DNA from: a virus
Length of the DNA stretch: 64,000 nt
Virus record (IMG/VR): IMGVR_UViG_3300024262_000026
Span: 9,025 to 73,024 of that record
Direction: 5' to 3' (one strand)
Below are positions 7,123 through 37,494 of this stretch, piece after piece. The position numbers and the translations under genes were made by a program. Each line of letters begins with the position of its first letter. Positions within the stretch are counted from its first letter, which is position 1. The notes under the pieces were generated by a model, which worked only from the letters and a program-made list of their open reading frames with translations, had not been told where the DNA came from and did no database searches.

Positions 7123-7153
7123 AAAAAAGAGGCTCAATTTTGAGCCTCTTTTT
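7123..7153. terminator. Bidirectional intrinsic terminator
   Basis: AAAAAAGAGGCTCA-loop-TGAGCCTCTTTTT. Confidence 0.8.
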
Positions 7154-7556
7154 CTATTTTATCAAGTTTGATTTTTCTATCCCGTTTTAATAGTTCCTTT
7201 GTTGTAAAACCCCAAGCAATACATCCAAACCGAACATCAGTATCAATATCAGATTTACCTTTTACTGCGGTATCACCATCTATCGATGTAAGAGTTAAAC
7301 CATCTTTACAGATATGATATGCCCATAATGGCATCACTATTAAATTTTCATCCCAAGACGAAAACCCAAGTTCGAATAATTCATCCTTTGTAAACTTTGT
7401 AAAATCAATATCTTGATCTTCACAAAATTTGTCATATGCTTCACGAATTTGTTTAAGCTTAAAATCATCACCCCAACCATCATATTCAAAAGCCTGAGCA
7501 TTTGTCGAAATAATATAATTTTTATAACTGTTTATTTTCTGTACTTCTTCTCTCAC
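7134..7556 (-). CDS. Hypothetical protein with C-terminal RxxKLxxI motif
   Basis: 140-aa ORF; DTDVRFGCIAWG core; ends RKIKLDKIEKEAQN. Confidence 0.75.
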   Translation of the reverse strand: MREEVQKINSYKNYIISTNAQAFEYDGWGDDFKLKQIREAYDKFCEDQDIDFTKFTKDELFELGFSSWDENLIVMPLWAYHICKDGLTLTSIDGDTAVKGKSDIDTDVRFGCIAWGFTTKELLKRDRKIKLDKIEKEAQN

Positions 7557-7562
7557 TAAAAA

Positions 7563-10037
7563 TTAATTATATTTTTGGTAGGACTTTTCTTCCACCAGAG
7601 AACTACCTTTGCTGACATTTATTCTTTTCTTAATATCAGATCTCACATCATTTGTAAAATATACACTTCTTGCAAGTTCTACAAATTCATCATCAAATGT
7701 TTTCTTTCGTTCTTTATCTCTAATATCATCTTCAATTTTCCAAAGTTTTCTATTGATTTCTAATAAATCTTGATAATCATCATCTTCTTCAAAAATATCA
7801 ATTTCATTCTCCATTATTTTCTTAAGTTCATTATATTCTTTTCTGATATTTTTGGTTTTGTTTTCATCCTTTATATTTTCAAGTTTTATCTGTAAAATAG
7901 TAACTTTATCGACTAATTCTCCTTTTGAGTTTGGAATGTTTACTGAATTCTTTTCTAATTCAATTTCTTTTATTGCCTGAATAACTTCAGCAGGTTGAAT
8001 TACTTTTGAACATATAAAATCTTTATCTTGAGGACAATATAACCATTTATGTGTGTCAAATTTTAAAGATGTATCATTCCAACAACCATTACAAACCGAA
8101 TCATTATGAATACGTTTAATATTCTTTTTAAACTCATTCCAAGGCTTTGTAAAGCCTGATATCATAATAGTTGGAGTATTCAACGCCCAAGCCATCCAAG
8201 CCAACCCAGTACTCAGGGTGATTATCATATCCGCATTTTTAATATCGACAATTCTATCCACTAAATCAATATTACCTGTCTTATCAATAAGTCCTCTAAC
8301 TTTTGGTGCCTGATTAAAATGTCCAGAAATTCCAAAACTTTTTTCTCTATCAATTACAACTATTTTATATCCATTATTTTTAAGATAATCAAATACTCGT
8401 TCCCAACCTACAGGATTATTCCAATATTTTAATTGTGCGGTTGATTGTAATGCAATTACAACATATTTACCTCTTATATTTCGTTCCCTTTCAGGTTCAT
8501 CTATTTTACCATCAAGTTCTATCATCGGCAAACCTAAGGCATTTGGTGCAATTAATTGAATTGGCAAATTTCTATAATCAATCATCGATGGATTATCAAA
8601 TCTACTTAAATCCATATCACTTATAGTGAGTGGATAATAATCAATTAAAAATCTCTTTGAAAATGAATATTTATTATCATCTTCTGGTTTAATAAATTTT
8701 AAATTAGGGAACGAATTTATAAAAAGTTGATTCCAAAATGTACTAATATAAACTTTAACGTTGTGTTTCTTTCTATATTCTTCAGCATAAGGAACCCAAG
8801 AAATTGTATCACCTAATGATGTACTACTAATCCTAATATAATGTATCTCATCTTCTTTCTTTATAACCTTTACTTCAAATTCTTCATATTCTGGTAAAAT
8901 TTCAACATCACCGATTTCGAATTTTTCTATATTTTCTATAACTTCTTGTGCCGTAATAGTTTTAGAACAAATAAAATGCTCAAAAGTACCTTTATGTTTA
9001 GGACACCAGTTCCAATCACCTGGATCAAAAGATGCATATTCATCAGGCTTATTCATACAACCGTTACACACATCATCATTATGCAACCTAACACAACCTG
9101 TTAAAAATTCCATAAAAGGTTCTGTAAATCCAGATATCATAATAACTTTAACTTTAAGTGCCCAAGCTAGCCAACTTATCCCTGACGATAATCCTATGAA
9201 AAATTCACAATGTTCTAACAACTTTATTGCTTCATCTAATGAATTATTATCAGGTTTAATAACACCATCTAAAGGTTTATTTCCCATATATTCGCCAGTT
9301 TCTTTACTTAGTGAATACACTAAATATCCTTTTGACTTCAAATAATTAACAACATCTTGCCAACCTGTAGGATTATTCCAATATTTACATTGTGCGGTAG
9401 AATGTTCCGCAATACAAACATATTTTTGTTCTATTTTTCTCTCAGATTTTTCATAATAGATTGGTGAATGTTTTTCTTTCCAATTTTTAATACCCAAAAT
9501 GTCAGCAACAACTTTTTGTAAAGGCTCACCGAATGGTTTAGTTACATTTTTATTTAAATTATTTCCACCATCAAAATATCCCAACTTATAAGAATGAAGA
9601 AAATCATCACTACTTCGGGTATTTGGTTCAAAAAAAATTATATTTGGATATAGATTTTTAAAATATTTATTATAAAATGTTGAACAATAAATTTTATTTA
9701 AATTGTGTTCTATTCTAAATTGTTCTACCATTGGCATCCAACCAATATTATCACCCAACGCTTTACTATCAAAAAATATACAAACATCTTTTTCTTTTAA
9801 ATCTAATTTTTTCTCAAAAACTATCTTATTATTAAATTTTACTCTGATTAACCAGTTAACGTAATATTTTTTATTAGTTTTTGCCCAATGATTGCTTTTC
9901 AAATCTATCTGAAATTCAACATTCTGATTATCCTGATTAACAAAATCAACATTATATGTATTTATACCATTTTTATCATCAGGATCTTTTATATTTAAAT
10001 AAGCACCATCATTAAAAGCATATTCAAAATTTACCAT
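7563..10037 (-). CDS. Tandem autotransporter-type O-heptosyltransferase (two Aah/TibC-like GT domains) + C-terminal DUF6165-like domain
   Basis: Two copies of S-x-x-LGD-x-I-x-W-x-P, STAQxKYWNNPxGW, LSS/TGx(S/A)WxAWAL, MISGFT and CNGC...CP...C; C-terminus GELVDKVTILQIK...LWKIEDDIR...LARSVY...EEKSY. Confidence 0.82.
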   Translation of the reverse strand: MVNFEYAFNDGAYLNIKDPDDKNGINTYNVDFVNQDNQNVEFQIDLKSNHWAKTNKKYYVNWLIRVKFNNKIVFEKKLDLKEKDVCIFFDSKALGDNIGWMPMVEQFRIEHNLNKIYCSTFYNKYFKNLYPNIIFFEPNTRSSDDFLHSYKLGYFDGGNNLNKNVTKPFGEPLQKVVADILGIKNWKEKHSPIYYEKSERKIEQKYVCIAEHSTAQCKYWNNPTGWQDVVNYLKSKGYLVYSLSKETGEYMGNKPLDGVIKPDNNSLDEAIKLLEHCEFFIGLSSGISWLAWALKVKVIMISGFTEPFMEFLTGCVRLHNDDVCNGCMNKPDEYASFDPGDWNWCPKHKGTFEHFICSKTITAQEVIENIEKFEIGDVEILPEYEEFEVKVIKKEDEIHYIRISSTSLGDTISWVPYAEEYRKKHNVKVYISTFWNQLFINSFPNLKFIKPEDDNKYSFSKRFLIDYYPLTISDMDLSRFDNPSMIDYRNLPIQLIAPNALGLPMIELDGKIDEPERERNIRGKYVVIALQSTAQLKYWNNPVGWERVFDYLKNNGYKIVVIDREKSFGISGHFNQAPKVRGLIDKTGNIDLVDRIVDIKNADMIITLSTGLAWMAWALNTPTIMISGFTKPWNEFKKNIKRIHNDSVCNGCWNDTSLKFDTHKWLYCPQDKDFICSKVIQPAEVIQAIKEIELEKNSVNIPNSKGELVDKVTILQIKLENIKDENKTKNIRKEYNELKKIMENEIDIFEEDDDYQDLLEINRKLWKIEDDIRDKERKKTFDDEFVELARSVYFTNDVRSDIKKRINVSKGSSLVEEKSYQKYN

Positions 10038-10053
10038 TTTTTCATTTTATTTT

Positions 10054-13266: not shown

Positions 13267-13283
13267 TTCTTATTCTTATTTTT

Positions 13284-13946: not shown

Positions 13947-13955
13947 TTTTCATCA

Positions 13956-15296: not shown

Positions 15297-15321
15297 ATAT
15301 TATGGTTAATTTTTATCTCTA

Positions 15322-16682: not shown

Positions 16683-16692
16683 TAATATATAA
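16683..16692 (+). promoter_or_regulatory. Putative phage late promoter (nnATATATAA class)
   Basis: TAATATATAA upstream of 16717; same motif precedes many structural and CTS-tagged genes. Confidence 0.5.
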
Positions 16693-26530: not shown

Positions 26531-26607
26531 AAAACTTATTTTTATTTTTATATATTGATTGAAATAGGACCCATACACCATAATATATAAAAATAAAAAT
26601 CATTATA

Positions 26608-27072
26608 ATGATGAAAAGAAGTGAATTTTTTGATCTATACAATAAATTGCAAGGTCTTAGATACCATAGTGACAACAAAAATTTTTCTTATGCCTTAATA
26701 AAAAATATTAAAGCTATTGAACAAGATATTAACAAACTTAATGAAGTTATAAAACCAACTGAAGAATTTCTACAATTTGAACAAGAGCGACTTGCTATTT
26801 GTCAATCACATTCAATTAAAGATGATAATGGTGACCCACTTTTAAATGGTGATGAATTTCAAATTGAAAATATTGAAAAATTTAATGAAGATTTAATACC
26901 ATTAAAGACGAAATATCAAGACATGTTAAATTATAGACAAGAACAAATAGAAAAGTATAATTCTCTTTTAGATCAAGAAATTGAAATGGAATTAGTTAAA
27001 ATAGGACCAGATGATTTACCTGATACTATAACACCAAACGAAATAGAAGATATCTATCCTATATTGTTATAA
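26608..27072 (+). CDS. Hypothetical helical protein (possible tail/fibre assembly chaperone)
   Basis: FSYALIKNIKAIE...ERLAIC..HSIKDDNGDP pattern; TAATATATAA at 26581. Confidence 0.55.
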   Translation: MMKRSEFFDLYNKLQGLRYHSDNKNFSYALIKNIKAIEQDINKLNEVIKPTEEFLQFEQERLAICQSHSIKDDNGDPLLNGDEFQIENIEKFNEDLIPLKTKYQDMLNYRQEQIEKYNSLLDQEIEMELVKIGPDDLPDTITPNEIEDIYPILL

Positions 27073-27760
27073 TAAATGCTTTTTTTCTTACAGATAATAT
27101 ATCACAAAAGGTGATGGAACTTATTTTGTCACCTTTTGTCCATATATTTTGAACCTTATTGTGTCCAACATATTGATGAATATTTTCTAATGGCTCCTCT
27201 AATTCTCGTTTATCCGCCCAAGTTGGTCCACCTATATAAGAATCACCACCTCTCCAAGATGATACTTGCATTAAAATATCTCTCCATTTATCATCATTTC
27301 CAATATCATTTAACACTTCAGCTAAATTTGAATTATCTTCTTTTAATCCAAAATATTTTAATACCTCAATATGTTCATCATACCACCAAACACTAATACC
27401 AGCATGTACAAAAATATGATTATCTCTTTGTAATGCAAATTGGAAAAGAGATTTATTTTTTTGAAAAACTTTTATGGTTTCTTTTAACCTTTCATTATAG
27501 TTTACTGAACTTGTATGGTATTTAGGATACCACATATATTGGGCATCGTGATTACCTATAAGTAATGTAACATTATCTGGGTGAGACTTTTTATAATTTA
27601 TAATCAAATTCAAATTTACAAGTGCATCACTATCATCAATCTTATTATCATAAGGATCACAATAATCACCCAGAAAAATAAAATGGGTATCTTTATTCTC
27701 ACCAACAAAATCCATCCAGGAATCTCTACCGTGAATATCACCTATAACACAAAATCTCAT
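27059..27760 (-). CDS. Calcineurin-like metallophosphoesterase
   Basis: GDIHG, GDYCD, GNHD, HAG, VGH motifs. Confidence 0.88.
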   Translation of the reverse strand: MRFCVIGDIHGRDSWMDFVGENKDTHFIFLGDYCDPYDNKIDDSDALVNLNLIINYKKSHPDNVTLLIGNHDAQYMWYPKYHTSSVNYNERLKETIKVFQKNKSLFQFALQRDNHIFVHAGISVWWYDEHIEVLKYFGLKEDNSNLAEVLNDIGNDDKWRDILMQVSSWRGGDSYIGGPTWADKRELEEPLENIHQYVGHNKVQNIWTKGDKISSITFCDILSVRKKAFIITI

Positions 27761-27815
27761 AAACAATTCTTTATTTAATGAATATACTTATAATATATCA
27801 CAACTGAATAAAAGT

Positions 27816-28154
27816 TTGATAATTATGGTTAATATAACATTTGACGAATATGTAAATATGATGGAAGACGAATCTAAATGGCAAATAATAAAAGATTTTG
27901 TTAATGAAACAAAGTACTTTCGTTCCAGAGATATTCCACTTGGAAGTACTGGAAAAGTATATGTAAACTATTTACACAAAGCTGGATTTTTAGGTAGACC
28001 TAAAAAAGGTATTTATTCATTAAACTTACATGTCGAAAATGATATAACATTATATAAAGTAACGGACTACGCTTATGGTGACAATAAAGGAGTAATCAAT
28101 AAAGTTGTTCGTAAAAACAAAATTATAAATTTAAATGAAATTTCAGAAGAATAA
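27816..28154 (+). CDS. Hypothetical (winged-helix-like) protein with C-terminal tag variant
   Basis: YVNYLHKAGFLGRPKKGIYSL; ends VRKNKIINLNEISEE. Confidence 0.65.
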   Translation: MIIMVNITFDEYVNMMEDESKWQIIKDFVNETKYFRSRDIPLGSTGKVYVNYLHKAGFLGRPKKGIYSLNLHVENDITLYKVTDYAYGDNKGVINKVVRKNKIINLNEISEE

Positions 28155-28452
28155 AGACGGTTACATAGAAGTTGAATATGAAGGTTCTTATTATTTTCTA
28201 GATGGTAAAAAATGGGTAAGAGATTTTAAAATTGATAACTCAACATATTACAGCAATACTGGTCATAACACAACAAGAAAATTTATTATTCCAGTAGGAC
28301 AACTATCTAGAAAACAGGCAGAAAAGCAAATAAAACAATTGATGGCACAATATACTGATAAAGAGGTATTTTACGATGAAATTCAATCTAAATTGACACG
28401 ATTATTAAGGAAAGCAAAATTAGATCAATTAAAAAATGTTGAAATTTTATGA
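28135..28452 (+). CDS. Hypothetical protein with portal-like segment and C-terminal RxxKLxxL motif
   Basis: RKFIIPVGQLSRKQAEKQIKQLMAQY; ends LRKAKLDQLKNVEIL. Confidence 0.65.
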   Translation: MKFQKNKDGYIEVEYEGSYYFLDGKKWVRDFKIDNSTYYSNTGHNTTRKFIIPVGQLSRKQAEKQIKQLMAQYTDKEVFYDEIQSKLTRLLRKAKLDQLKNVEIL

Positions 28453-28820
28453 GCAAATATTGGGTTAAAGTAAACGTTACTTGTAGGAACGACATCAAAC
28501 TTTATACAGATGATAAAGAAAAACTTAATGAACTAGAAAAAGATGCTGTTACACAAGCATTTTTACATGAAAGAACTTGTAAATTATGTGCAGATATCAA
28601 ATGGATGAGAGAACAAAGAGAAAAAGAAGATGCACTTTATAGAGTACAATCAGTTGCAAGATGTGGAGAAATATTATTTGTTGAACACACAAATCCATCT
28701 GAAGTAAGAAAAACACAGATGGAAAGAAATGTATGTCAACAAGTGGCGGAACATAGAAGAAATTGTATAAAATGTATAAGAATAGAAAAATTAGATAAAA
28801 TAAAGAATTTAACAATTTAA
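28449..28820 (+). CDS. Hypothetical Cys/His-rich protein with C-terminal RxxKLxxI motif
   Basis: Two HxxxCxxC units; ends IRIEKLDKIKNLTI. Confidence 0.7.
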   Translation: MSKYWVKVNVTCRNDIKLYTDDKEKLNELEKDAVTQAFLHERTCKLCADIKWMREQREKEDALYRVQSVARCGEILFVEHTNPSEVRKTQMERNVCQQVAEHRRNCIKCIRIEKLDKIKNLTI

Positions 28821-28831
28821 TAAAATTAAAA

Positions 28832-29428
28832 ATGGAATTAGAATATACACAAAACGATTTAAAATCAGCATTTGAATTTGGTAAAAAGTATCCAAATTTA
28901 AAATTAAAAGATTGGTTTAAATATGAGAAAACTCAACTAACAAAAGAAGAACAAAAATTATTTAAATTTATTGATGTTGCAACAGTACCGATAGGTAAAT
29001 CCAAATTGTTTTTTATGAATTGGAACGGTGTTGGAGGTGGACATTTTTCTGAACCTTTTAAAATATTCAAGAGAAAATATTTTAACAAATATTATCAATT
29101 TTTTAATAATTGTTCTGGAGAGTTTAGTGTGATAGTAACAGGAGAAGATTTTTTCAACTTAAAAACCTTTGATAAAACTGATTATGAAGGTGTGTATGTA
29201 AAAGAAATAATTCATAATGATGTAAAAATTACTATTATGAATTATATTGATTTTGATGGCGATAAAGATGAACATCAAGCTCATATGTTCTATTCTTGGA
29301 GAAACACTTTAGAACGAAATAATTACCATTTTTGGCAAATGGCGAATTGGGACGTTTATATTGATAAACCTTATAATTTAAACGTCACACCAGCATTAGA
29401 ACTTTTAGAAAAAAAAATCATTAAATGA
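28832..29428 (+). CDS. Hypothetical protein
   Basis: 198-aa ORF in the tightly packed + strand array. Confidence 0.7.
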   Translation: MELEYTQNDLKSAFEFGKKYPNLKLKDWFKYEKTQLTKEEQKLFKFIDVATVPIGKSKLFFMNWNGVGGGHFSEPFKIFKRKYFNKYYQFFNNCSGEFSVIVTGEDFFNLKTFDKTDYEGVYVKEIIHNDVKITIMNYIDFDGDKDEHQAHMFYSWRNTLERNNYHFWQMANWDVYIDKPYNLNVTPALELLEKKIIK

Positions 29429-29691
29429 AATATAAAGTAGGTGATAAATTAGTTTGTAGAGAAAATTTTGGTGATTGTATGGATACCATAATTTGGTATA
29501 AAAAACATAATTCATATGAAATAAATGACATCAGAAATAATTGGTTTGAAGAAAATAAAACTGCATATTTTATATCAATTAATGATAGTTCTGATCTTGA
29601 ATTTGAATATTCTGAACTACTTAAACATTTTTATATACCAAGTGAACTTAGAAGAAAAAAATTAGATATCATAAATGAAATATCCGAATGA
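29425..29691 (+). CDS. Small SH3/KOW-like protein with C-terminal RxxKLxxI motif
   Basis: MKYKVGDKLVC; ends LRRKKLDIINEISE. Confidence 0.7.
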   Translation: MKYKVGDKLVCRENFGDCMDTIIWYKKHNSYEINDIRNNWFEENKTAYFISINDSSDLEFEYSELLKHFYIPSELRRKKLDIINEISE

Positions 29692-30718
29692 TTTTATAAA
29701 TAAAAATATAGTTGGCGACTCAGTAGAATTGATGAAGCAAATTCCTGATAATGTTATTGATTTAACAGTAACATCACCACCATACGATAATCTCAGAACA
29801 TATAAAGGTAAAATAAAAGATAATATTACTTTTGATGATTATTCATTTCCTTTTCAGGAAATGGCACAAGAACTCTATCGTATAACAAAGAAAGGTGGTA
29901 TCGTTGTATGGGTAGTAAACGATCAAGTAAAAAATGGTGGAGAAACTGGCACATCATTTAGAATGGCATTATATTTTCAACAAATAGGATTCACTATTTA
30001 TGACACTATGATTTATCACAAAAATGGTCCACCATTTCCAGAATCTGGTAGATATTCACAAGTTTTTGAATATATGTTTGTATTTTCAAAGGGTAAACCA
30101 AATACTGTCAATTTAATTAAAGATAAAGAAAATCGTTGGTCAGGACACCAAAATTTTGGCACACCTTCTGCAAGAACAAAAGAAGGCAACTTAAAAAAAT
30201 CTGAAGCATTTACTGTTGCAGAATATGGCACAAGATATAATGTTTGGTACATCAATGCTGGTAAAGGCTACACAACTAAGGACGATTATGCTTACGTTCA
30301 CCCAGCAATGTTCCCAGAAAGTTTATCGGAGGATCATATTTTATCTTGGACAAATGAAGGTGATATTGTATTAGATCCGATGTGTGGAGCAGGCACCACT
30401 TGTAAAATGGCAAAACTTAATAATCGTAAATACGTGGGTATGGACATCAATCAAGAGTATGTTGATATATCTGACAGACGAGTAGAGATCGTGTCTTACA
30501 ACAAGGATAAACCTAACCCAAAGGTTAAATTTATCGTTTCAAGGGATGAAATCTTAGAAAAACGAAAGAAAACTAGAGAAGAAAACAAAAGAAAGAAAGA
30601 AATGGATTTAACGGAAAAAGATATAGAAATTTTGGAAAAAACAATTGAAAATCCACCAGAACCAAATGAAAAATTAAAGGAAGCTGCGGAAAAATATAAA
30701 GAAGATATAGATGATTAG
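29675..30718 (+). CDS. DNA methyltransferase (N4/N6 family, beta class, likely m4C) with C-terminal extension
   Basis: TSPPY catalytic motif, HPAMFP, VLDPMCGAGTT SAM motif. Confidence 0.9.
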   Translation: MKYPNDFINKNIVGDSVELMKQIPDNVIDLTVTSPPYDNLRTYKGKIKDNITFDDYSFPFQEMAQELYRITKKGGIVVWVVNDQVKNGGETGTSFRMALYFQQIGFTIYDTMIYHKNGPPFPESGRYSQVFEYMFVFSKGKPNTVNLIKDKENRWSGHQNFGTPSARTKEGNLKKSEAFTVAEYGTRYNVWYINAGKGYTTKDDYAYVHPAMFPESLSEDHILSWTNEGDIVLDPMCGAGTTCKMAKLNNRKYVGMDINQEYVDISDRRVEIVSYNKDKPNPKVKFIVSRDEILEKRKKTREENKRKKEMDLTEKDIEILEKTIENPPEPNEKLKEAAEKYKEDIDD

Positions 30719-30893
30719 CGAAGAATTACTTAAAATTCACTATAATAGTCGTAATGATGGTTTTGATGAAGAAGAAGATGATGACTATGAAAAAATTCAA
30801 GAAATTTATAAGCAATCCGCATATGAATATGAAAAGTGTGTGAAATTATATATTGATTATATGGAACAAGAAAAAATAAAAGTAAACAGATGA
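30711..30893 (+). CDS. Small acidic hypothetical protein
   Basis: 60-aa ORF overlapping the MTase end. Confidence 0.5.
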   Translation: MISEELLKIHYNSRNDGFDEEEDDDYEKIQEIYKQSAYEYEKCVKLYIDYMEQEKIKVNR

Positions 30894-30915
30894 GTAAATT
30901 AAAAAGTGAATTATT

Positions 30916-31650
30916 TTAAAGTTTATGATTATTTATTCTATTTTGTGCTAATTCAAAAGTTTCAGACTCTATCTCAATACCAATAAATTTTCTATTAGTG
31001 TTAAGGCAAGCTATTCCTGTAGTACCTGAACCCATAACATTATCCAACACAACATCGCCTTCATTTGTGTAAGTTTTTATTAATTCTTCTAACAATTCTA
31101 TACTTTTCTCTGTTCTATGAAGAGACTTGCTAGGGTGTGGCTTTTGAAAAGAAAAAATAGATGTTGGGTATTTTTCTGTTGTGCCCGCTCTCGAATCATC
31201 AACCATATCAAAATCACCATAATTTTGATTTTTATGTTCTTTATTTAAATATGATGTACCTTTAGAATGTAATGGTTTGCCACATATAAATTGTGGATTA
31301 TAAGTTGGCAATTTTGAATAAAAGACAGCTATTTGTTCATGAACCCTCAATGGCATCCTGTTTGCATTTAAAAATCCACTAATCAATTGTTTATCCCAAA
31401 TTATATCATATCTAAACATTTTTCTATTTGAATTAACTAAATCAACATAAAATATACCTTGAGAGAATAATAATATTGGACCATTATCTTTAATAACTCT
31501 TTTATATTGCTTCCATAATGGCTCAAAAGGAATTCTAATATCCTTCTTATTTTGTGTCACACCAAACGGCAAGTCTGCCAATATTATATCGACACTTTTA
31601 TCTTCTATTTTATTCATCACATTTAAACAATCACCCTTATATAATATCAT
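30916..31650 (-). CDS. DNA methyltransferase (N4/N6 family, beta class)
   Basis: ADLPFG, HRTEKS, VLDNVMGSGTTG. Confidence 0.88.
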   Translation of the reverse strand: MILYKGDCLNVMNKIEDKSVDIILADLPFGVTQNKKDIRIPFEPLWKQYKRVIKDNGPILLFSQGIFYVDLVNSNRKMFRYDIIWDKQLISGFLNANRMPLRVHEQIAVFYSKLPTYNPQFICGKPLHSKGTSYLNKEHKNQNYGDFDMVDDSRAGTTEKYPTSIFSFQKPHPSKSLHRTEKSIELLEELIKTYTNEGDVVLDNVMGSGTTGIACLNTNRKFIGIEIESETFELAQNRINNHKL

Positions 31651-31754
31651 ATATTTTATTAATTTTTACTTTATATATTTAAAAAATGATATTGTTTTTG
31701 TTACCTTTTTACATTTACATTTTTAATATATAAATAAAAACCACTTTTTATAAA

Positions 31755-32798
31755 ATGAAATGGACAAAAGAAGAATGTACAAAAGAGGCACAAAAATATT
31801 TATATAAAAAAGATTTTAAAAAATATTCATCAGGCGCATATACATCATCAATTAAAAATAAATGGTTGGATGATATAACTAAACATATGATATCTTTACG
31901 AAAAAGCAAAGATGAGTGGACATTAGAAGAATGTAGAGATATTGCAAAAAAATACAAAACAAGGACAGAATTTAATAAAAAAAGTATATCAGCTTATAGA
32001 ATATCATTATCTAATGATTGGATAGCTGATGTTTGTTCACATATGAATTGTTATGGTAATAGGTATTTGAGATGTATATACTCATATGAATTTAGTGATA
32101 ACTCAATATATATTGGGTTAACATATAATACGGATAATAGACATAAAAAACATATGTTTAAAGGAACAGTAAAAGAACATATGATTAAAATTAACGAGAA
32201 TCCAAAAATTAAAAAATTAACAGAATATCTACCAATAAATGAAGCAAAAAATGAAGAATATAAATATGTAGAATTTTATAAAAAAAATGGCTGGAAAATT
32301 TTGAACAAAATAAAAACAGGGGGAGTTGGAGGCACATCAATCATATGGAATTATGAAAATTGTAAAAAGGAATCATTGAAATATAAAAGTAGAAGTGAAT
32401 TTGCAAAAAATAACGGTAGCGCATACTATTCATCTATAAAAAACAAATGGCTAGATGATATATGTTCTCATATGATACTAAAAAAGAAACCTAATGGATA
32501 TTGGAATTATGAAAATTGTAAAAAAGAAGCCTTAAGATATAAAACTAAAAAATTTTTTTATAAAAACTCAAAAGGTGCTTATAACTCAGCAAAAAGAAAC
32601 AAATGGCTTAATAATATCTGTGAACATATGATAGGTAATAAAAACATAGGATATTGGAATTATGAAAATTGTAAAAAAGAAGCTTTAAAATATAAAACTA
32701 AAACAGAATTTAAAACTAAATGTGGTAGTGGCTATTTTTATAGCTATAAAAACAAATGGCTTAATGATATCTGTGAACATATGACAAAAAGCGATTGA
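31755..32798 (+). CDS. GIY-YIG-like endonuclease flanked by five ~50-aa helical repeats
   Basis: CIYSYEFSDNSIYIGLT...R...H...E...LN; repeats W(T/N)xEEC/ENC..EA.KY....F.....AY....NKWL.DIC.HM. Confidence 0.7.
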   Translation: MKWTKEECTKEAQKYLYKKDFKKYSSGAYTSSIKNKWLDDITKHMISLRKSKDEWTLEECRDIAKKYKTRTEFNKKSISAYRISLSNDWIADVCSHMNCYGNRYLRCIYSYEFSDNSIYIGLTYNTDNRHKKHMFKGTVKEHMIKINENPKIKKLTEYLPINEAKNEEYKYVEFYKKNGWKILNKIKTGGVGGTSIIWNYENCKKESLKYKSRSEFAKNNGSAYYSSIKNKWLDDICSHMILKKKPNGYWNYENCKKEALRYKTKKFFYKNSKGAYNSAKRNKWLNNICEHMIGNKNIGYWNYENCKKEALKYKTKTEFKTKCGSGYFYSYKNKWLNDICEHMTKSD

Positions 32799-32806
32799 TT
32801 TAATTA

Positions 32807-33334
32807 ATGGAACTACCTAATAATGAACAAATATATAAAGATATGTTTGATATGATGAATAAGGTTTTCAAAGAAAATAACGTTTTTCAAAGAAAACCAA
32901 CAATACTTTATGATGATTATTATACAAATTTTATAACATTTTTGAAAAATAGCTTTGAATATGATCGTTTTCAAAATGAAAAGTTAAATATTGTTGATTA
33001 TGTTGATAATTTTAAAAATTTAGAACTATTCTTTAAAATTATCAGTAATACGAATGTTTTTTTAGTTGAACAACCATCATTTATTTTGCATTATCTTCAA
33101 GATGATAACCAACTAACTACAATTACTAAACAAGTATCCGAAACAAACATTTATGGCTTTGTTGATGAATTTAATAAAAGCAATAAAATATTTATTTTAT
33201 ATATGATTAGGAGTAATGGAATGTTGAGATATGTCACAGTTGATAAAGATCCAAGATACATACAACTTAATGTGAAAGAAAGATTAAAGAAAGAAAGAAG
33301 ATTAAAATTAGAACAAATAAATGAAACAATATAA
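32807..33334 (+). CDS. Hypothetical protein with C-terminal RxxKLxxI motif
   Basis: Ends ERRLKLEQINETI. Confidence 0.7.
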   Translation: MELPNNEQIYKDMFDMMNKVFKENNVFQRKPTILYDDYYTNFITFLKNSFEYDRFQNEKLNIVDYVDNFKNLELFFKIISNTNVFLVEQPSFILHYLQDDNQLTTITKQVSETNIYGFVDEFNKSNKIFILYMIRSNGMLRYVTVDKDPRYIQLNVKERLKKERRLKLEQINETI

Positions 33335-33707
33335 ATGGATAATATGGTTTCCTAAAAAATGGGAGAGACATACACATTCATCTCCTTCTGTGCTTTATGG
33401 ATATTTAGATGGTGAAATATTTATATCAAATAAATATCTTTTCAATACTGACATTGAAAGTGAATCTAATGGTTTCACACCTATTGATGAAAGATTTAAA
33501 GAAAAATATTATTATGAATTTTTTGATTCTAAAGATGATGTCGTTATATTGAGCAAAGAACTTCAAAGGGAAAAATATAAAATAAAACAAGAATTTCAAG
33601 ATAAAATGGAAAACTTTTATTCTAAAACATCTTTAAAAAAGATGAAAAATAAAATTAGAGAAGCGAAATTAAAACAAATAAATGAGCAAATTTACGATAG
33701 GGGATAG
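33321..33707 (+). CDS. Hypothetical protein with C-terminal RxxKLxxI motif
   Basis: Ends IREAKLKQINEQIYDRG. Confidence 0.7.
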   Translation: MKQYKWIIWFPKKWERHTHSSPSVLYGYLDGEIFISNKYLFNTDIESESNGFTPIDERFKEKYYYEFFDSKDDVVILSKELQREKYKIKQEFQDKMENFYSKTSLKKMKNKIREAKLKQINEQIYDRG

Positions 33708-33951
33708 AGTTATTTATATTGGTTTCAATGATGATGGTTTAGATGGTCCAAATGCTTGGAAATTAGAAAGATTGCAAGAATATACTATCACAAATAAAGC
33801 ATTTGAAACACATAAAGATACAGGTATGTTTTATGGTGTGAGAGATTATAAAGGTGTAGAAACTACTTGGTATAAAGAAAAGGATTTTATAAGTATTGTT
33901 GAAGCTAGAAAATTAAAATTAGATAAGATAAATGATAGATATAACATATAA
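33682..33951 (+). CDS. Small SH3/KOW-like protein with C-terminal RxxKLxxI motif
   Basis: MSKFTIGDRVIYIG; ends ARKLKLDKINDRYNI. Confidence 0.7.
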   Translation: MSKFTIGDRVIYIGFNDDGLDGPNAWKLERLQEYTITNKAFETHKDTGMFYGVRDYKGVETTWYKEKDFISIVEARKLKLDKINDRYNI

Positions 33952-34765
33952 TAGAACAGAAAACACAACTCGGGTAGAATTATCAACATTTAACATTTTT
34001 AATGAGGAACAATTACCTCTTGTAGTAAAATTTAAAAATTTTATTAACAATAAAATAGTTTGGACTCGAAAATTAGATGAAGGTTGTTGGGTTGAATGGT
34101 CAGGTGGTGAAGTCATATACAATTTTACAATTGATACTGCTCAAGAACAACGAGTATTAGATTGGAAATATCAAGTTGAAAATAATGGCACACTTGTAGA
34201 AAAAACATTATATTATTTCATTAAAAATACCCCACATAGAACTAAAGGACTTATTGTTGGTTCACATAATGGATTATGGGGTCAATGGATATTTCCAGTA
34301 ATAGAAAATGCTTGTGATGTTGTAATGGTTGATGGTAGTTCACTTCAATTGGAAGAAGCCAAAATAAACTATTCTCATCTAAATAATTGTAAATTTATAA
34401 ATGAAATAGTTACACCTGATGGTAAAGATGTTACTTGGTTTCAAGGTAAAGAAGGGTGTACAGATACCGTGGATAAGAAAATTATTTCAAAATTTTTAAA
34501 CGAAGATGAAATCATAAGTAGTTTTAGAACGACTATATCAATAAACAATATTTTTGAACAATACGGAAACTTTGATTGGCTCTATTTAGATGCTGAAGGT
34601 ATAGACTCAGATTTAATATTATCTCTTAATTATCATCCTGGTTTAATAATATATGAACCTGATCATATCTCTGATAAACAAAATATCAAATTGATGGAAT
34701 GGTTTAAATTAAATGGGTATAAAGTATTTGAAGAATTAGATTGTATAGCAATAAAAGAAATATGA
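33932..34765 (+). CDS. FkbM-like SAM-dependent methyltransferase with N-terminal extra domain
   Basis: IVGSHNG, VMVDG, FDWLYLDAEGID, IIYE. Confidence 0.65.
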   Translation: MIDITYNRTENTTRVELSTFNIFNEEQLPLVVKFKNFINNKIVWTRKLDEGCWVEWSGGEVIYNFTIDTAQEQRVLDWKYQVENNGTLVEKTLYYFIKNTPHRTKGLIVGSHNGLWGQWIFPVIENACDVVMVDGSSLQLEEAKINYSHLNNCKFINEIVTPDGKDVTWFQGKEGCTDTVDKKIISKFLNEDEIISSFRTTISINNIFEQYGNFDWLYLDAEGIDSDLILSLNYHPGLIIYEPDHISDKQNIKLMEWFKLNGYKVFEELDCIAIKEI

Positions 34766-35022
34766 GATACGAAAAAGAATATTTAGATAAAATTGGAATG
34801 AAAGTATCACACAAAATTGATGAAGATACAATGGCACCAATAGTAACATTTGAACTTAATGGTGTTGAATCTACAATAAAAATGACAAGACTTGATATGG
34901 AAGATTTTAAAAGTGGTCCACCATATGATGATTTTATTGTTAAAAGAATTAACTCACATATAACAGAATTAATAAAAATTGTTAGGAAAAAGAAATTGGA
35001 AGATATAAATGAAATGGACTGA
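34762..35022 (+). CDS. Hypothetical protein (paralog A) with C-terminal RxxKLxxI motif
   Basis: ATG overlaps upstream TGA; TMAP...NG...TR..MEDFK; ends VRKKKLEDINEMD. Confidence 0.7.
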   Translation: MRYEKEYLDKIGMKVSHKIDEDTMAPIVTFELNGVESTIKMTRLDMEDFKSGPPYDDFIVKRINSHITELIKIVRKKKLEDINEMD

Positions 35023-35290
35023 AGAAAGAAGAAAAGCATACGGTATTGATTTAGATACTATGAGTGAAGCGACAATGGCACCAAGATTAAGAATAACAAT
35101 TAATGGATACTCAACCTTAATGTCATTAACTAGAGAATTTATAGAAGATTTAAAATGGCAAACACCGAATTCAGAAGTGTTTATTGATAGTATGATAGAT
35201 GATGAAATTGAAAGACACCCTGAATTTAAAAGGATAGTCAGAAAAAAGAAATTGGAACAAATTGAACGATTGGACAGAACGGATAGATAA
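35009..35290 (+). CDS. Hypothetical protein (paralog B) with C-terminal RxxKLxxI motif
   Basis: TMAP...NG...TR..IEDLK; ends VRKKKLEQIERLDRTDR. Confidence 0.7.
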   Translation: MKWTEERRKAYGIDLDTMSEATMAPRLRITINGYSTLMSLTREFIEDLKWQTPNSEVFIDSMIDDEIERHPEFKRIVRKKKLEQIERLDRTDR

Positions 35291-35291
35291 T

Positions 35292-35564
35292 ATGTATTGG
35301 TGGGATGAATATAAAAAAGAAACTATTATAATCTCCAAAGAAGATGTTAATGAATCAGTAGGTAAAGGTATGCCTACTAAGATCATAAAGAAAAACACAA
35401 AACTAAAAATTACAGATAGTTTCAAATTTATGATATTTGTAGAAGATGAAAATAGAAATTTGGGGGTAATTGATACTAAAGATATAAATAGATTTTATAA
35501 TACTAAAGAAAGTGCTAAAATTATTAGAAAAGAAAAATTAGATAAGATAAATGATAAAATATAA
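35292..35564 (+). CDS. Hypothetical protein with C-terminal RxxKLxxI motif
   Basis: ATG at 35292 (ORF track uses TTG 35262); ends IRKEKLDKINDKI. Confidence 0.65.
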   Translation: MYWWDEYKKETIIISKEDVNESVGKGMPTKIIKKNTKLKITDSFKFMIFVEDENRNLGVIDTKDINRFYNTKESAKIIRKEKLDKINDKI

Positions 35565-36108
35565 TTTTGGAATAGAATGTGAAATATCTTGGAATAAATT
35601 TCTCTGTGTTAATATGGGTGAAGAAAGACGATATAAACAAGAATTTGAAAATTTTAATGAATTTTTCTATTTTTTAGAACACAATAAACGAACTATAACA
35701 AAATTATTATTTGATGGGTATGAATATATTCTTCAAAATGGACTATTACATAATTTATACGGACCTGCAAAATTAAGACATAAAGAAAAAGAAGATGGAG
35801 ATCCATTTTTCGGCACAACCAAATGGTTTTTTATCAATGGTAAATTGGTAACCGATAAATTAGAAAACTATAGGGGATGTAAGAATTTAGAAGATTTTGA
35901 AAATAATGAAATTTTCTTTTACGAAGAAGTAACAGGTAAAAAATCTGGTAGAGATGAAAAGACTGGACAACTTTATAGACGAAAAGAGGGTATTGATTAT
36001 ATAAAACATCCAATAAATTTAGAATCACTTAGACAAAAAGATATAAGAAAAAAGAAATTAGACCAAATAGATGAGCAAGATAATTATAATCAGCAATACC
36101 CAATTTAA
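35551..36108 (+). CDS. Hypothetical protein with LHxxxGPA unit and C-terminal RxxKLxxI motif
   Basis: GLLHNLYGPA...WFFINGK; IRKKKLDQIDE near the end. Confidence 0.7.
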   Translation: MIKYNFGIECEISWNKFLCVNMGEERRYKQEFENFNEFFYFLEHNKRTITKLLFDGYEYILQNGLLHNLYGPAKLRHKEKEDGDPFFGTTKWFFINGKLVTDKLENYRGCKNLEDFENNEIFFYEEVTGKKSGRDEKTGQLYRRKEGIDYIKHPINLESLRQKDIRKKKLDQIDEQDNYNQQYPI

Positions 36109-37039
36109 CATATCAAAAAACCTTACAACTAAAGAATGGTTGAAGAATATGGATTATTATTTCAACAACGAATTTATACCTTATTTAAAGCAAAATAAGA
36201 GCGATAACGACATATTAGTACACTTAGGTAATCTACTATCAAATACCAAAAACATCAACTTAGAAGTCTTAAAATTCATTCAGGAGACATTTGAGAGTAT
36301 AAGTTCAATACTACCAGTCTATATTTTAAACGGTGAAAATGATACACACACAAAAACCATCTTAAACAACATTAAAGATATTGAAATAATATCAGAACCT
36401 AAAGAAATTGAAATTTTATTAGACCAAAGATTCGCAATGTTACCAAGTAATAGTAAAGTAGAAGATATTGACAAATTTGATTCTGATTATTGTTTTTTTC
36501 ACTTTGATATTAATACACCTCAAAGAGATTCAATACTTAAAAAATTATCAAAATTTCAAAAATGTTATTGTGGTTATTATGATAAAAATGGTGTTATGAA
36601 AAATATTAAATTTTTAGGTTCACCATACAACTTAGAAAAAGATGAAAAGAAAGGGTTTATTGTTCTAGAAACACACACTAATAAAGATAAATTTATTCTT
36701 AATAAAATAAGTCCATCATTTAAAAAAATTACAATAAATGATGATGAAGATTTTGAAATAGATAAATCCATATTTTTAAATAACTACGTGAGTCTCACAT
36801 TAAATAAAAAACTTTTTGTTGATAATAAACTAAAAATAGAAATGTTATTATCAGAAAATGATTTTAAAAATGTTTCTTATACGGATGATGATATTAAAAG
36901 AGATAGAGATCTGATACAATTAGATGGCGAATCAGTTTCATTGAAAGAGATGATATCCGAATATATACAGAAATCAGAAATAGATAATAAAGATAGATTA
37001 TTACAAGAATTTGAAAAAATAACAAAATTAAATGGATAA
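36071..37039 (+). CDS. gp47/Mre11/SbcD-like protein with degenerate metal-binding motifs
   Basis: IISNTQF, VHLGNL, LNGEND, YCGYYD, FLGSPY...KKGF...NKISPSF match the gp47 layout but lack the D/H ligands. Confidence 0.7.
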   Translation: MSKIIIISNTQFNISKNLTTKEWLKNMDYYFNNEFIPYLKQNKSDNDILVHLGNLLSNTKNINLEVLKFIQETFESISSILPVYILNGENDTHTKTILNNIKDIEIISEPKEIEILLDQRFAMLPSNSKVEDIDKFDSDYCFFHFDINTPQRDSILKKLSKFQKCYCGYYDKNGVMKNIKFLGSPYNLEKDEKKGFIVLETHTNKDKFILNKISPSFKKITINDDEDFEIDKSIFLNNYVSLTLNKKLFVDNKLKIEMLLSENDFKNVSYTDDDIKRDRDLIQLDGESVSLKEMISEYIQKSEIDNKDRLLQEFEKITKLNG

Positions 37040-37235
37040 TTATTACAAAGAATTATTAAAGAAACATTATGAATCAATAAATGAAAAAGATATACAAGAG
37101 TATATGGATTTCTGTTTGGATTACGTTAAAGAAAACATCATAAATTGTTATAGTAATGAGAAATCAACAAAAAATGTTATTGAAGAATTATTTAAAAGAG
37201 GTATGGCTAAAAAATGGAAATTAAAACATGATTGA
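37032..37235 (+). CDS. Small hypothetical protein
   Basis: 67-aa ORF overlapping both neighbours. Confidence 0.55.
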   Translation: MDNYYKELLKKHYESINEKDIQEYMDFCLDYVKENIINCYSNEKSTKNVIEELFKRGMAKKWKLKHD

Positions 37236-37494
37236 TTTAAAAGGTAAAGTAAATTTTAGGGATTTTACTACAGAAGATTTATTGGAATTGGGAATACAAA
37301 GTATTTCTACAATATCTGAGGCTTCTTGGAAACCAAAAGTTATGTTTAAATTTTTGGACGGCAATGAAGAATCATTTAGTGTAAATAAAGATGAAAATAT
37401 TGAAGATAAAATAAACAATAAAATAAACGAAATTGTTAGAAAGAAAATAGTAGAACAACGAAAAGAAAAACTAAACCAATTAAAATGTTATTAG
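37228..37494 (+). CDS. Hypothetical protein with C-terminal RxxKLxxL motif
   Basis: Ends QRKEKLNQLKCY. Confidence 0.7.
   Translation: MIDLKGKVNFRDFTTEDLLELGIQSISTISEASWKPKVMFKFLDGNEESFSVNKDENIEDKINNKINEIVRKKIVEQRKEKLNQLKCY

Follow-up and report, generated by a model that had tools for sequence, protein, structure and literature searches.

A putative C-terminal docking tag on small accessory proteins of a huge-phage clade

What could be the role of a single short motif that recurs near the C-termini of many otherwise dissimilar phage proteins? The question was raised by a 64,000-nt stretch of viral DNA (the window; positions 9,025 to 73,024 of IMG/VR record IMGVR_UViG_3300024262_000026), in which a preliminary description had listed 14 ORFs sharing such a motif. 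All 14 were found to translate as listed, the starts 34762 and 35292 being the first ATGs within the TTG-started frames 34741 and 35262, respectively.

Tagged genes and definition of the tag

The tagged ORFs and the locus holding most of them are as follows.

7134..7556, minus strand: tagged ORF, 140 aa, GTG start, body in phrog_6726; tag RKIKLDKIE at 7152-7178
25098..37754, plus strand: fast-changing locus with 13 of the 14 tagged genes
25526..25981, plus strand: tagged ORF, 151 aa; tag RKEKLNKIN at 25940-25966, next ATG at 25965
27816..28154, plus strand: tagged ORF, 112 aa from TTG (first ATG 27825); tag RKNKIINLN at 28110-28136, next ATG at 28135
28135..28452, plus strand: tagged ORF, 105 aa; tag RKAKLDQLK at 28408-28434
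28449..28820, plus strand: tagged ORF, 123 aa; tag RIEKLDKIK at 28779-28805
29425..29691, plus strand: tagged ORF, 88 aa, predicted SH3-like barrel body; tag RRKKLDIIN at 29650-29676
32807..33334, plus strand: tagged ORF, 175 aa; tag RRLKLEQIN at 33296-33322
33321..33707, plus strand: tagged ORF, 128 aa; tag REAKLKQIN at 33657-33683
33682..33951, plus strand: tagged ORF, 89 aa; tag RKLKLDKIN at 33907-33933
34762..35022, plus strand: tagged ORF, open from TTG 34741, paralogue of 35009; tag RKKKLEDIN at 34984-35010
35009..35290, plus strand: tagged ORF, 93 aa, paralogue of 34741/34762; tag RKKKLEQIE at 35240-35266
35292..35564, plus strand: tagged ORF, open from TTG 35262; tag RKEKLDKIN at 35526-35552
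35551..36108, plus strand: tagged ORF, 185 aa; tag RKKKLDQID at 36046-36072, then 11 more residues
37228..37494, plus strand: tagged ORF, 88 aa; tag RKEKLNQLK at 37459-37485

The locus is flanked by a baseplate-hub-like gene (22260-23966) and by a conserved gene (36071-37039) together with an AAA+ gene (37802-38950). Between the same two anchor genes of the related fragment G002, five of ten ORFs were tagged, and none of these five had a BLAST homologue among the tagged ORFs of the window.

The consensus of the tag was hydrophobic-R-K-x-K-L-[DEK]-[KQ]-I-N, followed by 2-12 polar residues to the stop; usually it ended 3-6 residues short of the stop, i.e., not at the extreme C-terminus. When greedily chosen ORFs of at least 40 aa from the whole 73,024-bp record were searched with the regular expression R..K[LIVM]..[LIVM], 14 of the 100 ORFs had a match situated 3-12 residues from the stop, as against 3 internal matches, whereas within-protein shuffles (n = 100) gave a C-terminal mean of 0.35 (maximum 3) and an internal mean of 3.69. 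The preliminary observation was confirmed. A profile of 22 positions, constructed from 42 tags, identified exactly those 14 places in the record and nowhere else, and in an unbiased gapped-triplet scan of the last 20 residues RK.K, R..KL, RK..L, and KL.Q ranked at the top. The largest tagged ORF of the record comprised 185 aa, and none above that size was tagged.

As for scale, the record had been taken for a phage of 73 kb in which some 14 genes are tagged, but it represents approximately 10% of one huge phage, and its relatives carry dozens to about 100 tagged ORFs per fragment. In the related IMG/VR fragments G007, G002, and G003, 36/112, 81/410, and 97/616 ORFs were tagged, a share of 16-32% (up to a third), and profile matches numbered 24, 45, and 41, respectively, as compared with 14 in the record. 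This huge-phage clade with the RK tag probably infects Bacteroidota. Comparable tag clusters were absent from five complete huge phages and three cultured Flavobacteriia jumbo phages, the pattern matches in bacterial genomes (n = 117) formed no such clusters, and the RK..IN profile gave 45 matches in G002 versus 0-1 in the five complete huge phages.

Protein-level selection and overlap with the next gene

Selection on the tag acts at the protein level. The synonymous-codon diversity noted previously was reproduced for both arginine (AGA 9, CGA 2, AGG 2, CGT 1) and leucine (TTA 9, TTG 2, CTT 1, CTA 1), codon usage at R1, K2, K4, L5, and N9 was background-like in this record (p 0.11-0.91), and the L5 codons of 146 tags of relatives showed no departure from background (p 0.37). 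The tag was kept in 5/5 homologue pairs at 28-45% identity and by 9/9 close homologues of 7134(-). Among the divergent homologues, that of 25526 in G002 (30% identity) and those of 33682 and 35551 in G003 (33% and 45%) retained the tag, and that of 37228 in G003 (40%) bore a C-terminal RKKKLELIN.

At the nucleotide level, the next gene's ATG was located 1 nt past the I/L8 codon (ATA-AAT-GAx) in nine of the 14 tagged ORFs and 2 nt past it in one more. This overlap of tag and start (10/14 in the window) is a feature overlooked by the preliminary description.

Such proximity would fit an explanation in which constraint on DNA or RNA, imposed either by the A-rich initiation region or start of the next gene or by a shuffling-cassette junction, generates the motif as a by-product, and the peptide itself is functionless. 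Upstream of the 97 ATG-started genes of the record, an A-rich box occupied positions -18..-14 and position -11 was marked by an A, and a Shine-Dalgarno sequence was absent; where the next ATG is 1 nt downstream, K4-L5 (AAA TTA) coincides with this box, K4 being AAA in 14/14 tags of the record and I8 being ATA in 70/89 tags versus about 50% background. However, the R1 and L5 codons varied like background, the general upstream box held no information at the R1 position, and the ATA bias at I8 was independent of the distance to the next start (38/48 vs 32/41). In relatives, this distance ranged from -46 to +136 nt, 18 of the 97 G003 tags had no same-strand downstream gene within 150 nt, and downstream of the 7134(-) tag there is a terminator-like hairpin with a T-run and no gene. 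Substitutions within the tag were, moreover, conservative as amino acids (L/I/V, K/R). A functionless by-product is thus highly improbable, and the overlap with the next start region is a lineage quirk rather than the cause of the motif.

Carrier proteins, portability, and lineage variants

The carriers are small, soluble, cytoplasmic-type proteins, mostly orphans; a TM-like 19-mer was present in 3/227 tagged proteins versus 97/665 untagged small ORFs. As previously described, their bodies were unrelated apart from one paralogue pair, BLAST giving 13 clusters for the 14 proteins with 34741/35009 as the pair. On a larger scale, 225 tagged bodies fell into 132 BLAST clusters, and several tagged-family profile pairs were unrelated by hhalign (probabilities below 10%). 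Some tagged clusters proved to be remote homologues (93-97% for c0-c1, c1-c8, and c2-c10), indicating that part of the spread is family expansion, not independent tagging. One tagged G003 protein, in which the tag follows a 70-residue extension, was a Tad3 homologue (E 3e-34) and is, judged by this similarity, a Tad3-like Thoeris inhibitor; Tad3 is reported to bind the Thoeris sensor ThsB (PMC13728456).

The phrog_6726 profile spans residues 12-120 of 7134(-), stopping short of the tag. Homologues of this protein in the enterobacterial phages GAP32 and phT4A stop before the tag position and are untagged, and in the LR756502 homologue RDSIIDTIL takes the place of the RK tag. One body family thus occurs untagged, RK-tagged, and RD-tagged, which argues that the tag is portable. 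Matches to RD..I..IL numbered 28 in LR756502 and 32 in LR745206 versus 2 and 2 in the controls, with 0 in G002 and 0 among 1,238 RK-clade ORFs, and LR756501 contained 109 DPYGE[ED] sites versus 0 in controls. Between the RK and RD clades, K2 was switched to D and N9 to L genome-wide. At the sequence level, the tag variants are therefore mutually exclusive between lineages, each lineage having its own form, and this argues for a single co-evolving putative reader.

Helix prediction and readings without a protein reader

The AF2 model of the 29425 family (32-row alignment, mean pLDDT 84.5) predicted an SH3-like barrel and a helix at residues 72-87 corresponding to the tag; since this helix had a pLDDT of about 85 within a confident model, it may pack on its own body in this family and not be free. 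A second AF2 model was poor (mean pLDDT 51.7). On the helix, R1, K2, K4, L5, I8, and N9 share one face, and positions 3, 6, and 7 are variable.

The confidently modelled helix, together with the invariant F at -8 in the SH3-like family, is consistent with a structural or self-association element that needs no external reader, such as a short zipper for dimers or hetero-oligomers, persisting as the slowest-evolving part of a few divergent duplicated families. The tandem array of 14 copies of the 29425 family in G003 at 191-195 kb, the clusters of 17 and 17 members, and the merging of several BLAST clusters at the profile level fit this explanation, as does the homodimeric action reported for Tad3 (PMC13728456). 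Nevertheless, unrelated bodies (phrog_6726, Tad3, SH3-like, and others below 10% by hhalign) share the tag, and the three states of the phrog_6726 family tell against a structural role. Neither the conserved polar R1, K4, and N9 nor the genome-wide exchange of K2 for D and of N9 for L would be expected of independent structural helices, and oligomers mixed from about 100 distinct proteins would be a strange arrangement. We accordingly regard a purely structural helix as quite unlikely.

The strongly basic first half of the tag (R-K-x-K) followed by a hydrophobic stripe might instead bind nucleic acid or acidic lipids, by which the carriers would be concentrated on the nucleoid, phage DNA, or membrane. 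With just two conserved hydrophobic positions and D/E common at position 6, however, the hydrophobic moment is weak for membrane binding, and the K2 to D change of the sister clade and the acidic tag of another clade misfit generic electrostatics; a target other than protein is very improbable.

Proposed docking function and its possible reader and destination

We favor, with a probability of roughly 0.58, a portable C-terminal alpha-helical docking tag on the accessory-protein library of a huge-phage clade; put more broadly, a docking tag of any kind with a common putative reader appears somewhat likely. The accessory proteins that bear it are small and soluble and would form a large library with rapid turnover, and the conserved helix face would plug into a groove of a single candidate reader. 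This reader would co-evolve with the tag and would therefore probably be phage-encoded. The core idea of the preliminary description, in which a single receptor reads the motif as a docking or sorting signal of the protein, is supported by the codons, the divergent homologues, the body family, and the exclusive variants; the two AAA+ proteins that it had suggested as readers (5762 and 37802) are candidates.

Three candidate readers are encoded in the window.

37802-38950: classical-clade AAA+ with a 180-residue N-domain
5762-7090: MoxR-like ATPase
48668-49666: phage DnaJ (E 1e-63 to TIGR02349)

The tag might accordingly dock its carriers on an ATP-driven unfoldase, protease, or chaperone, either as substrates of a scheduled degron or as adaptors bringing host proteins for unfolding, the latter version being modelled on SspB-type tethering tails or F-box/PRANC receptors. 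The AAA+ gene adjoins the tagged locus in both the window and G002, sequence places its product in the Cdc48/VAT clade, a DnaJ is encoded within the window, and the Tad3-like protein, which would bind a host immune protein, has an adaptor-like layout with its tag beyond a 70-residue extension. Full-length AAA+ orthologues were confined to two RK-clade fragments, G002 and G008, LR756501 (DPYGEE tag) matched only AAA+ residues 171-369, and LR756502 and LR745206 (RD tag) matched from residues 112 and 103 on; this N-domain pattern is weak evidence because N-domains diverge fast anyway. On the other hand, the tag is predicted to be helical, not disordered, and is usually followed by those 3-6 residues, no protease partner was seen in 73 kb, and G001 (estimated 70% complete, 8 tags) lacked an AAA+ homologue at E <= 1e-5. 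Docking on such a machine is therefore unlikely.

Loading into the prohead or virion is the preferred, though doubtful, destination of such a docking tag. The tag would act like a cargo-loading peptide, and the small proteins, anti-defence ones included, would be packed and delivered with the DNA. In favor of this, short prohead-protease-domain copies in G006 (159 aa, ending RKMKIDQI) and LR756501 (178 aa, ending DPYGEENW), both lacking the scaffold portion found in the full-length protease-scaffold protein, carry the local tag ends. According to PMC10052503, the capsid of the giant phage SPN3US contains over 50 gene products, of which many are ejected. The heads of tagged gene clusters had a TATATAA-type upstream motif, the same as that of the sheath-like gene, and a TAnnTTTG motif preceded 877, 3687, 5762, and RtcB, not the heads of tagged clusters; these promoter motifs are short AT-rich words with 206 occurrences in a 28% GC genome, which counts against prohead loading. 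Downstream of the tag, no protease site was conserved (E occupied position 10 in 11/44), and the C-termini of protease-scaffold proteins were similar basic helices across clades with chemically different tags, so that the tags are not simple copies of that end. Likewise, 16-32% of ORFs would be a very large cargo for a prohead.

Comparison with known systems

Literature searches revealed no published system matching the tag, in agreement with the preliminary description, which knew of no characterised one; the tag points to a so far undescribed protein address label in huge phages. The capsid targeting sequence (CTS) of T4 is an N-terminal peptide of about 10 residues on the internal proteins IPI-III and Alt, which addresses its carriers to the prohead core and is removed by the prohead protease after L/I-x-E. 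Like the CTS, the present tag is a short peptide common to otherwise unrelated phage proteins, anti-defence proteins among them, and the single address of the CTS is putative here; unlike the CTS, it is C-terminal, helical, and without a conserved cleavage motif, and it is found on 16-32% of ORFs rather than on a handful of carriers.

Encapsulin cargo-loading peptides are C-terminal and are recognized by the interior surface of a shell with the HK97 fold, the fold family of tailed-phage capsids. They resemble the present tag in marking unrelated proteins at the C-terminus, and reading by the capsid would be the counterpart here; they differ in being Gly/Ser/Leu-rich and extended, with few cargo types per system. 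To our knowledge, nothing comparable to encapsulin cargo loading is known in phages.

ClpX signals and SspB-type tails (ssrA, MuA RRKKAI, the SspB XB peptide) dock diverse proteins on one AAA+ and are, like the tag, short basic/hydrophobic C-terminal peptides. These signals are disordered and mostly need a free C-terminus, whereas the tag is predicted to be helical with 3-12 residues after it, and no Clp-type partner was seen. The MIM helices of ESCRT-III, C-terminal and amphipathic with a Leu and Arg face, are recognized by the MIT domain of the AAA+ Vps4; the tag would likewise be a C-terminal helix with Leu/Arg on one face, and a classical-clade AAA+ gene adjoins the locus, but an ESCRT-like body is absent and the present carriers are mutually unrelated. 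Finally, poxviral ankyrin-PRANC and cellular F-box proteins use a domain of 40-50 residues to bind Skp1 of the host ubiquitin system. The module described here comprises 9-16 residues on bodies of several folds in a phage of a bacterial host, and it shares with PRANC/F-box proteins the organization of large, fast-evolving viral families in which variable target-binding bodies are combined with one conserved C-terminal module, which in the tagged proteins would serve docking.

Identification of a common C-terminal tag

The preliminary description had listed 14 ORFs of the window whose mostly unrelated bodies end in a common R-x-x-K-L-x-x-I/L motif, and the translated ends of all 14 were found to agree with it. 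The regular expression R..K[LIVM]..[LIVM] matched within 3–12 residues of the stop in 14 of 100 ORFs and at three other places in ~23,000 residues, and 100 shuffles of each protein gave a mean of 0.35 C-terminal matches (maximum 3). The proposed enrichment at C-termini, over both internal positions and composition controls, was thus confirmed. A profile built from 42 tags recovered exactly these 14 places in the record, and fragments of the same motif, hereafter the RK tag, ranked first in an unbiased scan for C-terminally enriched motifs. The consensus of 44 tags was [ILV]-R-K-x-K-L-[DEK]-[KQ]-I-N followed by a short polar tail, with N9 (numbered within RKxKLxxIN) present in 27 of them. Among 227 carriers, the distance from tag to stop was 1–20 residues, mostly 3–6.

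Phage, host and gene-start signals

The 73,024-bp record, of which the window is bases 9025–73024, belongs to the linear class and shows a GC content of ~28% and a CheckV completeness of ~10%. Its replication and tail-like proteins are nearest to those of the 634–735-kb uncultured phages LR756501–LR756504 and LR745206, with the UvsX-like protein reaching up to 62% identity, and its remoter relatives are the Lak phages of Prevotella and jumbo phages of Tenacibaculum and Chryseobacterium. Based on these nearest protein relatives, the record is judged to be a piece of a huge phage, and its host was probably a member of the Bacteroidota.

The gene starts (97 genes of the whole record) displayed no Shine–Dalgarno sequence, and were instead marked by an A-rich box at −18 to −14 plus an A at −11. 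TAnnTTTG, the −7 promoter box of Bacteroidota, was found upstream of ORFs 877, 3687 and 5762 (a MoxR-like ATPase) and of the RtcB gene (e.g. at window 837, 3657 and 5715). Both features fit the proposed host. Another word, TATATA[AT]N, lies ~25–36 nt before many first genes of same-strand runs (e.g. at window 17147, 19302, 26583 and 31726), and the genes that follow it include a sheath-like gene and the heads of tag clusters.

Other features observed in the window were as follows.

7100–7134: 7-bp GC-rich inverted repeat and T-run right after the stop of tagged ORF 7134(-), a terminator-like hairpin between convergent genes
7563–10037 (-): 824-aa protein with a heptosyltransferase-like domain and DUF6165
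10054–13266 (-): ribonucleotide reductase large subunit, 1070 aa versus 852 aa in the syntenic orthologue of G002 (68% identity); the extra length is possibly an inserted element such as an intein
48668–49666 (+): full DnaJ, with J domain, zinc-finger region and C-terminal domain
50863–52026 (-): PPK2 polyphosphate kinase
53254–54675 (-): RtcB ligase

Distribution of the tag in related phages

A degenerate DNA pattern encoding R-K-x-K-[L/F]-D-K-I-N matched 42 stretches of IMG/VR; 15 of them lie in contigs of 24–27% GC, where the match falls in-frame at the 3′ end of a small ORF with more tagged ORFs adjoining. Applied to 596 Gb of bacterial and archaeal genomes, this pattern matched at 117 scattered sites, and at no locus was there more than one C-terminal match. 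As summarized in the table, the tag recurred many times over in several other IMG/VR fragments (the RK clade).

Table. Tag-profile matches (E ≤ 0.01) per IMG/VR record; all records are fragments, with an estimated completeness of 7–70%
G002, 235 kb: 45
G003, 330 kb: 41
G007, 47 kb: 24
G008: 10
G006: 9
G005: 8
G001, 501 kb: 8

Counted by regular expression, tagged ORFs made up 81 of the 410 in G002, 97 of the 616 in G003 and 36 of the 112 in G007, against shuffle means of 0.5–2.7; G002 and G007 are not independent, since identical proteins are common to both, and the distinct tagged sequences numbered 192 overall. G002 is syntenic with the record over core genes (40–82% identity).

These contigs surfaced through the DNA pattern and not through proteins 17175, 36071 and 31755 of the window, which gave 2, 0 and 2 loci in IMG/VR, none carrying the tag. 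Megablast of window 32000–38000 against 50,697 phage records and tblastn of the 88-aa tagged protein 29425 returned no match, and the profile found none in the cultured Flavobacteriia jumbo phages MA9V-2, pT24 and PTm1; no cultured phage with the RK tag was found by this profile and tblastn. The profile likewise had no match at E ≤ 10 among sequences of solved structures.

Properties of the tagged proteins

The carriers are encoded in same-strand runs of genes within loci that change fast: in the interval bounded by one pair of conserved genes, the record has 13 tagged ORFs and G002 five different ones. They are small (median 80–108 aa versus 113–195 aa for untagged ORFs), and a transmembrane-like segment was predicted in 3 of 227 tagged versus 97 of 665 untagged small ORFs. 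Descent of the whole proteins from a single family was rejected, as 225 bodies fell into 132 BLAST clusters and matched entries as diverse as phrog_6726, Tad3 and DUF6794; some clusters merge by profile into two larger superfamilies, and others are unrelated (hhalign probability <10%). Four of 150 tagged proteins matched a Pfam family and eight a PHROG. The idea that the bodies are pieces of longer proteins from the same phage was also rejected in general, because only 15 of 225 matched an untagged ORF by BLASTP (E ≤ 0.01), mostly paralogues; the exceptions are clear mini-copies of a protease/scaffold protein, two in G006 and one in LR756501.

One carrier of recognizable function is a 194-aa protein of G003 (L185:16930–17511(+)), whose residues 2–125 match the Pfam family Tad3, a type I Thoeris inhibitor (E 3.3e-34), and whose 70-residue extension ends in the tag. 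Tad3 is described as binding the Thoeris sensor ThsB (PMC13728456).

The AF2 model of the 29425 family (mean pLDDT 84.5) combined an SH3-like barrel with two helices, one short and the other, at the terminus, 16 residues long and corresponding to the tag. A fold search with this model gave weak matches only (best E 0.058), to chromo-barrel and SH3 folds, including the SH3 domains of Dda/RecD-type helicases; the model of 7134(-), made from nine sequences, was unusable (mean pLDDT 51.7). On a helical wheel of 100 degrees per residue, R1, K2, K4, L5, I8 and N9 would fall within ~160 degrees, with the variable positions 3, 6 and 7 opposite.

Selection on the tag at the protein level

Protein-level selection, suggested in the preliminary description from the variety of synonymous codons, was upheld by two observations. 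The codons for R1, K2, K4, L5 and N9, five of the six conserved residues, follow the genomes' own usage, and homologues keep the tag, namely all five homologues in G002 or G003 of window proteins that have one (28–45% identity) and all nine database homologues of 7134(-).

A point absent from that description is that the ATG of the next gene lies 1–2 nt past the tag in 10 of the 14 window cases, and the DNA of the tag therefore sits on the A-rich upstream box of that gene. The motif might thus have been a translation-initiation or cassette-junction DNA element. This explanation was rejected, given the background-like codons, the variable distance from tag to next start in relatives and the 18 of 97 tags of G003 that have no downstream gene. 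Together with 7134(-), which is followed by a terminator-like hairpin, these cases show the overlap to be a local saving of space rather than the source of the motif. A nucleotide-level bias persists at I8, which is encoded by ATA in 70 of 89 tags of the record, G002, G003 and G007, versus 47–51% in the background, also before Asn; the presence of a start codon close downstream makes no difference to it.

Portability and lineage specificity

The body of 7134(-) (7134–7556) offers a view of the tag as a separable unit. The phrog_6726 profile matches it to residue 120, where the profile ends; tblastn located the body in 91 phage records, and among the matches listed all stop at residues 116–118. 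In Cronobacter phage GAP32 and Escherichia phage phT4A, the annotated homologues reach no further and have no tag. In LR756502, the homologue (L217 374–805(+)) carries R-D-S-I-I-D-T-I-L exactly where 7134(-) has R-K-I-K-L-D-K-I-E. This sister variant, R-D-x-(K)-I-x-x-I-L, is shared by LR756502 and LR745206: the pattern R-D-x-x-I-x-x-I-L occurred 28 and 32 times, respectively, versus 2 and 2 for the reversed control, with no occurrence in G002 or among 1,238 RK-clade ORFs. The RK profile gave 0–1 matches in the five complete huge phages.

The nearest relative with a complete genome, LR756501, has yet another motif, D-P-Y-G-E-[ED]-x-W. By DNA pattern, 109 D-P-Y-G-E-[ED] sites were counted versus none for the reversed control, and the pattern had no match in four other records. 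All three instances read sit at ORF ends, as follows.

LR756501.1 (W01), L164 161–400 (+): ORF ending in D-P-Y-G-E-[ED]-x-W
LR756501.1 (W01), L164 32942–33565 (-): ORF ending in the same motif
LR756501.1 (W01), L212 1381–1917 (-): ORF ending in the same motif

In G002 and G003, a second tag was found (loci L168–L198, e.g. G003 247500–267213), where small proteins without the RK tag have [TA]-x-K-F-N-[IL]-stop as their very end, as in ...TNKFNL and ...ANKFNI. A loose regular expression, whose counts include some chance matches, gave 31 of 410 ORFs in G002, 64 of 616 in G003, 2 of 112 in G007 and 0 of 100 in this record.

Judged from these sequence comparisons, the tag is portable between bodies and specific to the lineage. 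A whole proteome changing its tag variant in concert is what would be expected if one reader per lineage co-evolves with the tags, and this is the main argument for a common reader. We accordingly favor, with a probability of about 0.6, a docking tag recognized by a common reader.

Candidate destinations and readers

With respect to the destination, loading into the prohead is the preferred but tentative suggestion, drawn mainly from mini-copies of the ~800-aa prohead protease-scaffold protein. Three such ORFs, each with the tag of its own clade, were found.

G006, L213 992–1471 (+): mini-copy with RK tag
G006, L213 1477–2088 (+): mini-copy with RK tag
LR756501, L212 1381–1917 (-): mini-copy with the LR756501 tag

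They resemble either the N-terminal protease domain (39–45% identity, E 3e-15 and 7e-28) or the 14-residue YSEYIAENL repeats. The 159-aa protease-domain copy of G006 ends in RKMKIDQI and its 178-aa counterpart in LR756501 in DPYGEENW, and in the other ORF of G006 the scaffold's 14-residue repeats are followed directly by RKEKLDHI. The protease-domain copies lack the scaffold part that would normally bring the protease into the prohead, and a tag doing this targeting job of the scaffold would explain them. A faint pointer to the prohead may also be seen in the upstream word of TATATAA type, not the host-type word, shared by the heads of tagged clusters and the sheath-like gene. A Gp23-like capsid gene was located in G005 only. 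That the tag mimics the end of the scaffold was not supported: although the C-terminus of the RK-clade protease-scaffold protein, ...F-D-K-L-N-S, resembles the latter half of the tag, comparable basic termini (...YLKRLQR and ...MERFKSI) are present in clades that use other tags, so that the scaffold end does not co-vary with the tag.

An unfoldase or chaperone is a rather improbable destination. The AAA+ protein at 37802–38950(-) adjoins the tagged locus, and its full-length N-domain was found in RK-clade fragments only: in LR756501, the alignment of the homologue begins at residue 171 (42% identity), and in LR756502 and LR745206 that of the remoter homologues (27–29% identity) begins at residues 112 and 103. 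How far the similarity extends into the N-domain thus follows tag type rather than overall relatedness, a slight lead to a candidate reader. A complex prediction that paired residues 1–195 (alignment of 11 rows) with a tag segment of 34 residues (alignment of 100 rows), run without controls, gave no answer, with a score of 0.00 versus a mark of 0.32, and speaks neither for nor against binding.

Taken at its broadest, the docking-tag reading would become a proteome-scale peptide address code in huge phages, a doubtful but conceivable extension in which every lineage would use one or more tags of its own (RKxKLxxIN here, RDxKIxxIL in LR756502 and LR745206, DPYGEExW in LR756501, and the second tag [TA]xKFN[IL]-stop in G002 and G003). 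A phage-encoded reader, co-evolving with the tags, would direct at least a hundred accessory proteins, small and fast-evolving, to one place; were this shared destination the giant capsid, as is most likely under such a code, a ready-made anti-defence and takeover arsenal would enter the cell with the DNA.

Significance

Most genes of huge phages are orphans, and the shared tag groups 16–32% of the fragments' ORFs into one functional class without homology. Among its members is the Tad3-like Thoeris inhibitor, and unknown counter-defence proteins are likely to be abundant in it. The 16-residue peptide provides a direct experimental handle to fish for the reader, and the existence of an own tag per lineage makes the question directly testable by tag swapping. 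If the reader is the capsid or a sorting machine, phage cell biology would gain a new principle, and proteins could be loaded into phage particles by means of a portable tag; if it is an unfoldase, the phage would possess a viral adaptor library in bacteria.

Comparison with known systems

The preliminary view that no characterised system matches is in line with the literature on tag peptides, C-terminal motifs of huge phages and jumbo-phage capsid targeting, in which, supplementary files aside, our search met no description of such tags. In passages of one huge-phage preprint, sortase signals are the only signals mentioned.

The tag lacks the defining features of both the T4 capsid targeting sequence and Clp-type degrons. 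The T4-type sequence ends in the prohead-protease site L/I-x-E and is N-terminal, whereas the tag lies close before the stop (1–20 residues in the 227 carriers); I8-N9-E10 does occur, but E10 is present in only 11 of 44 tags. ClpX-type degrons or tethering tails are disordered and at the extreme C-terminus, whereas the tag is followed by 1–12 further residues and is predicted to be helical (one confident model). Among the proteins annotated on the 73-kb fragment (~10% of the genome), no protease of the Clp, Lon or FtsH type was found.

Two other systems are resembled in principle only. Encapsulin-type cargo-loading peptides are likewise short C-terminal tags on unrelated proteins, and the docking of MIM helices to MIT domains (Vps4-like) would find its analogy in the candidate AAA+ protein, which has an AAA domain of the classical clade and an N-domain at residues 1–180.
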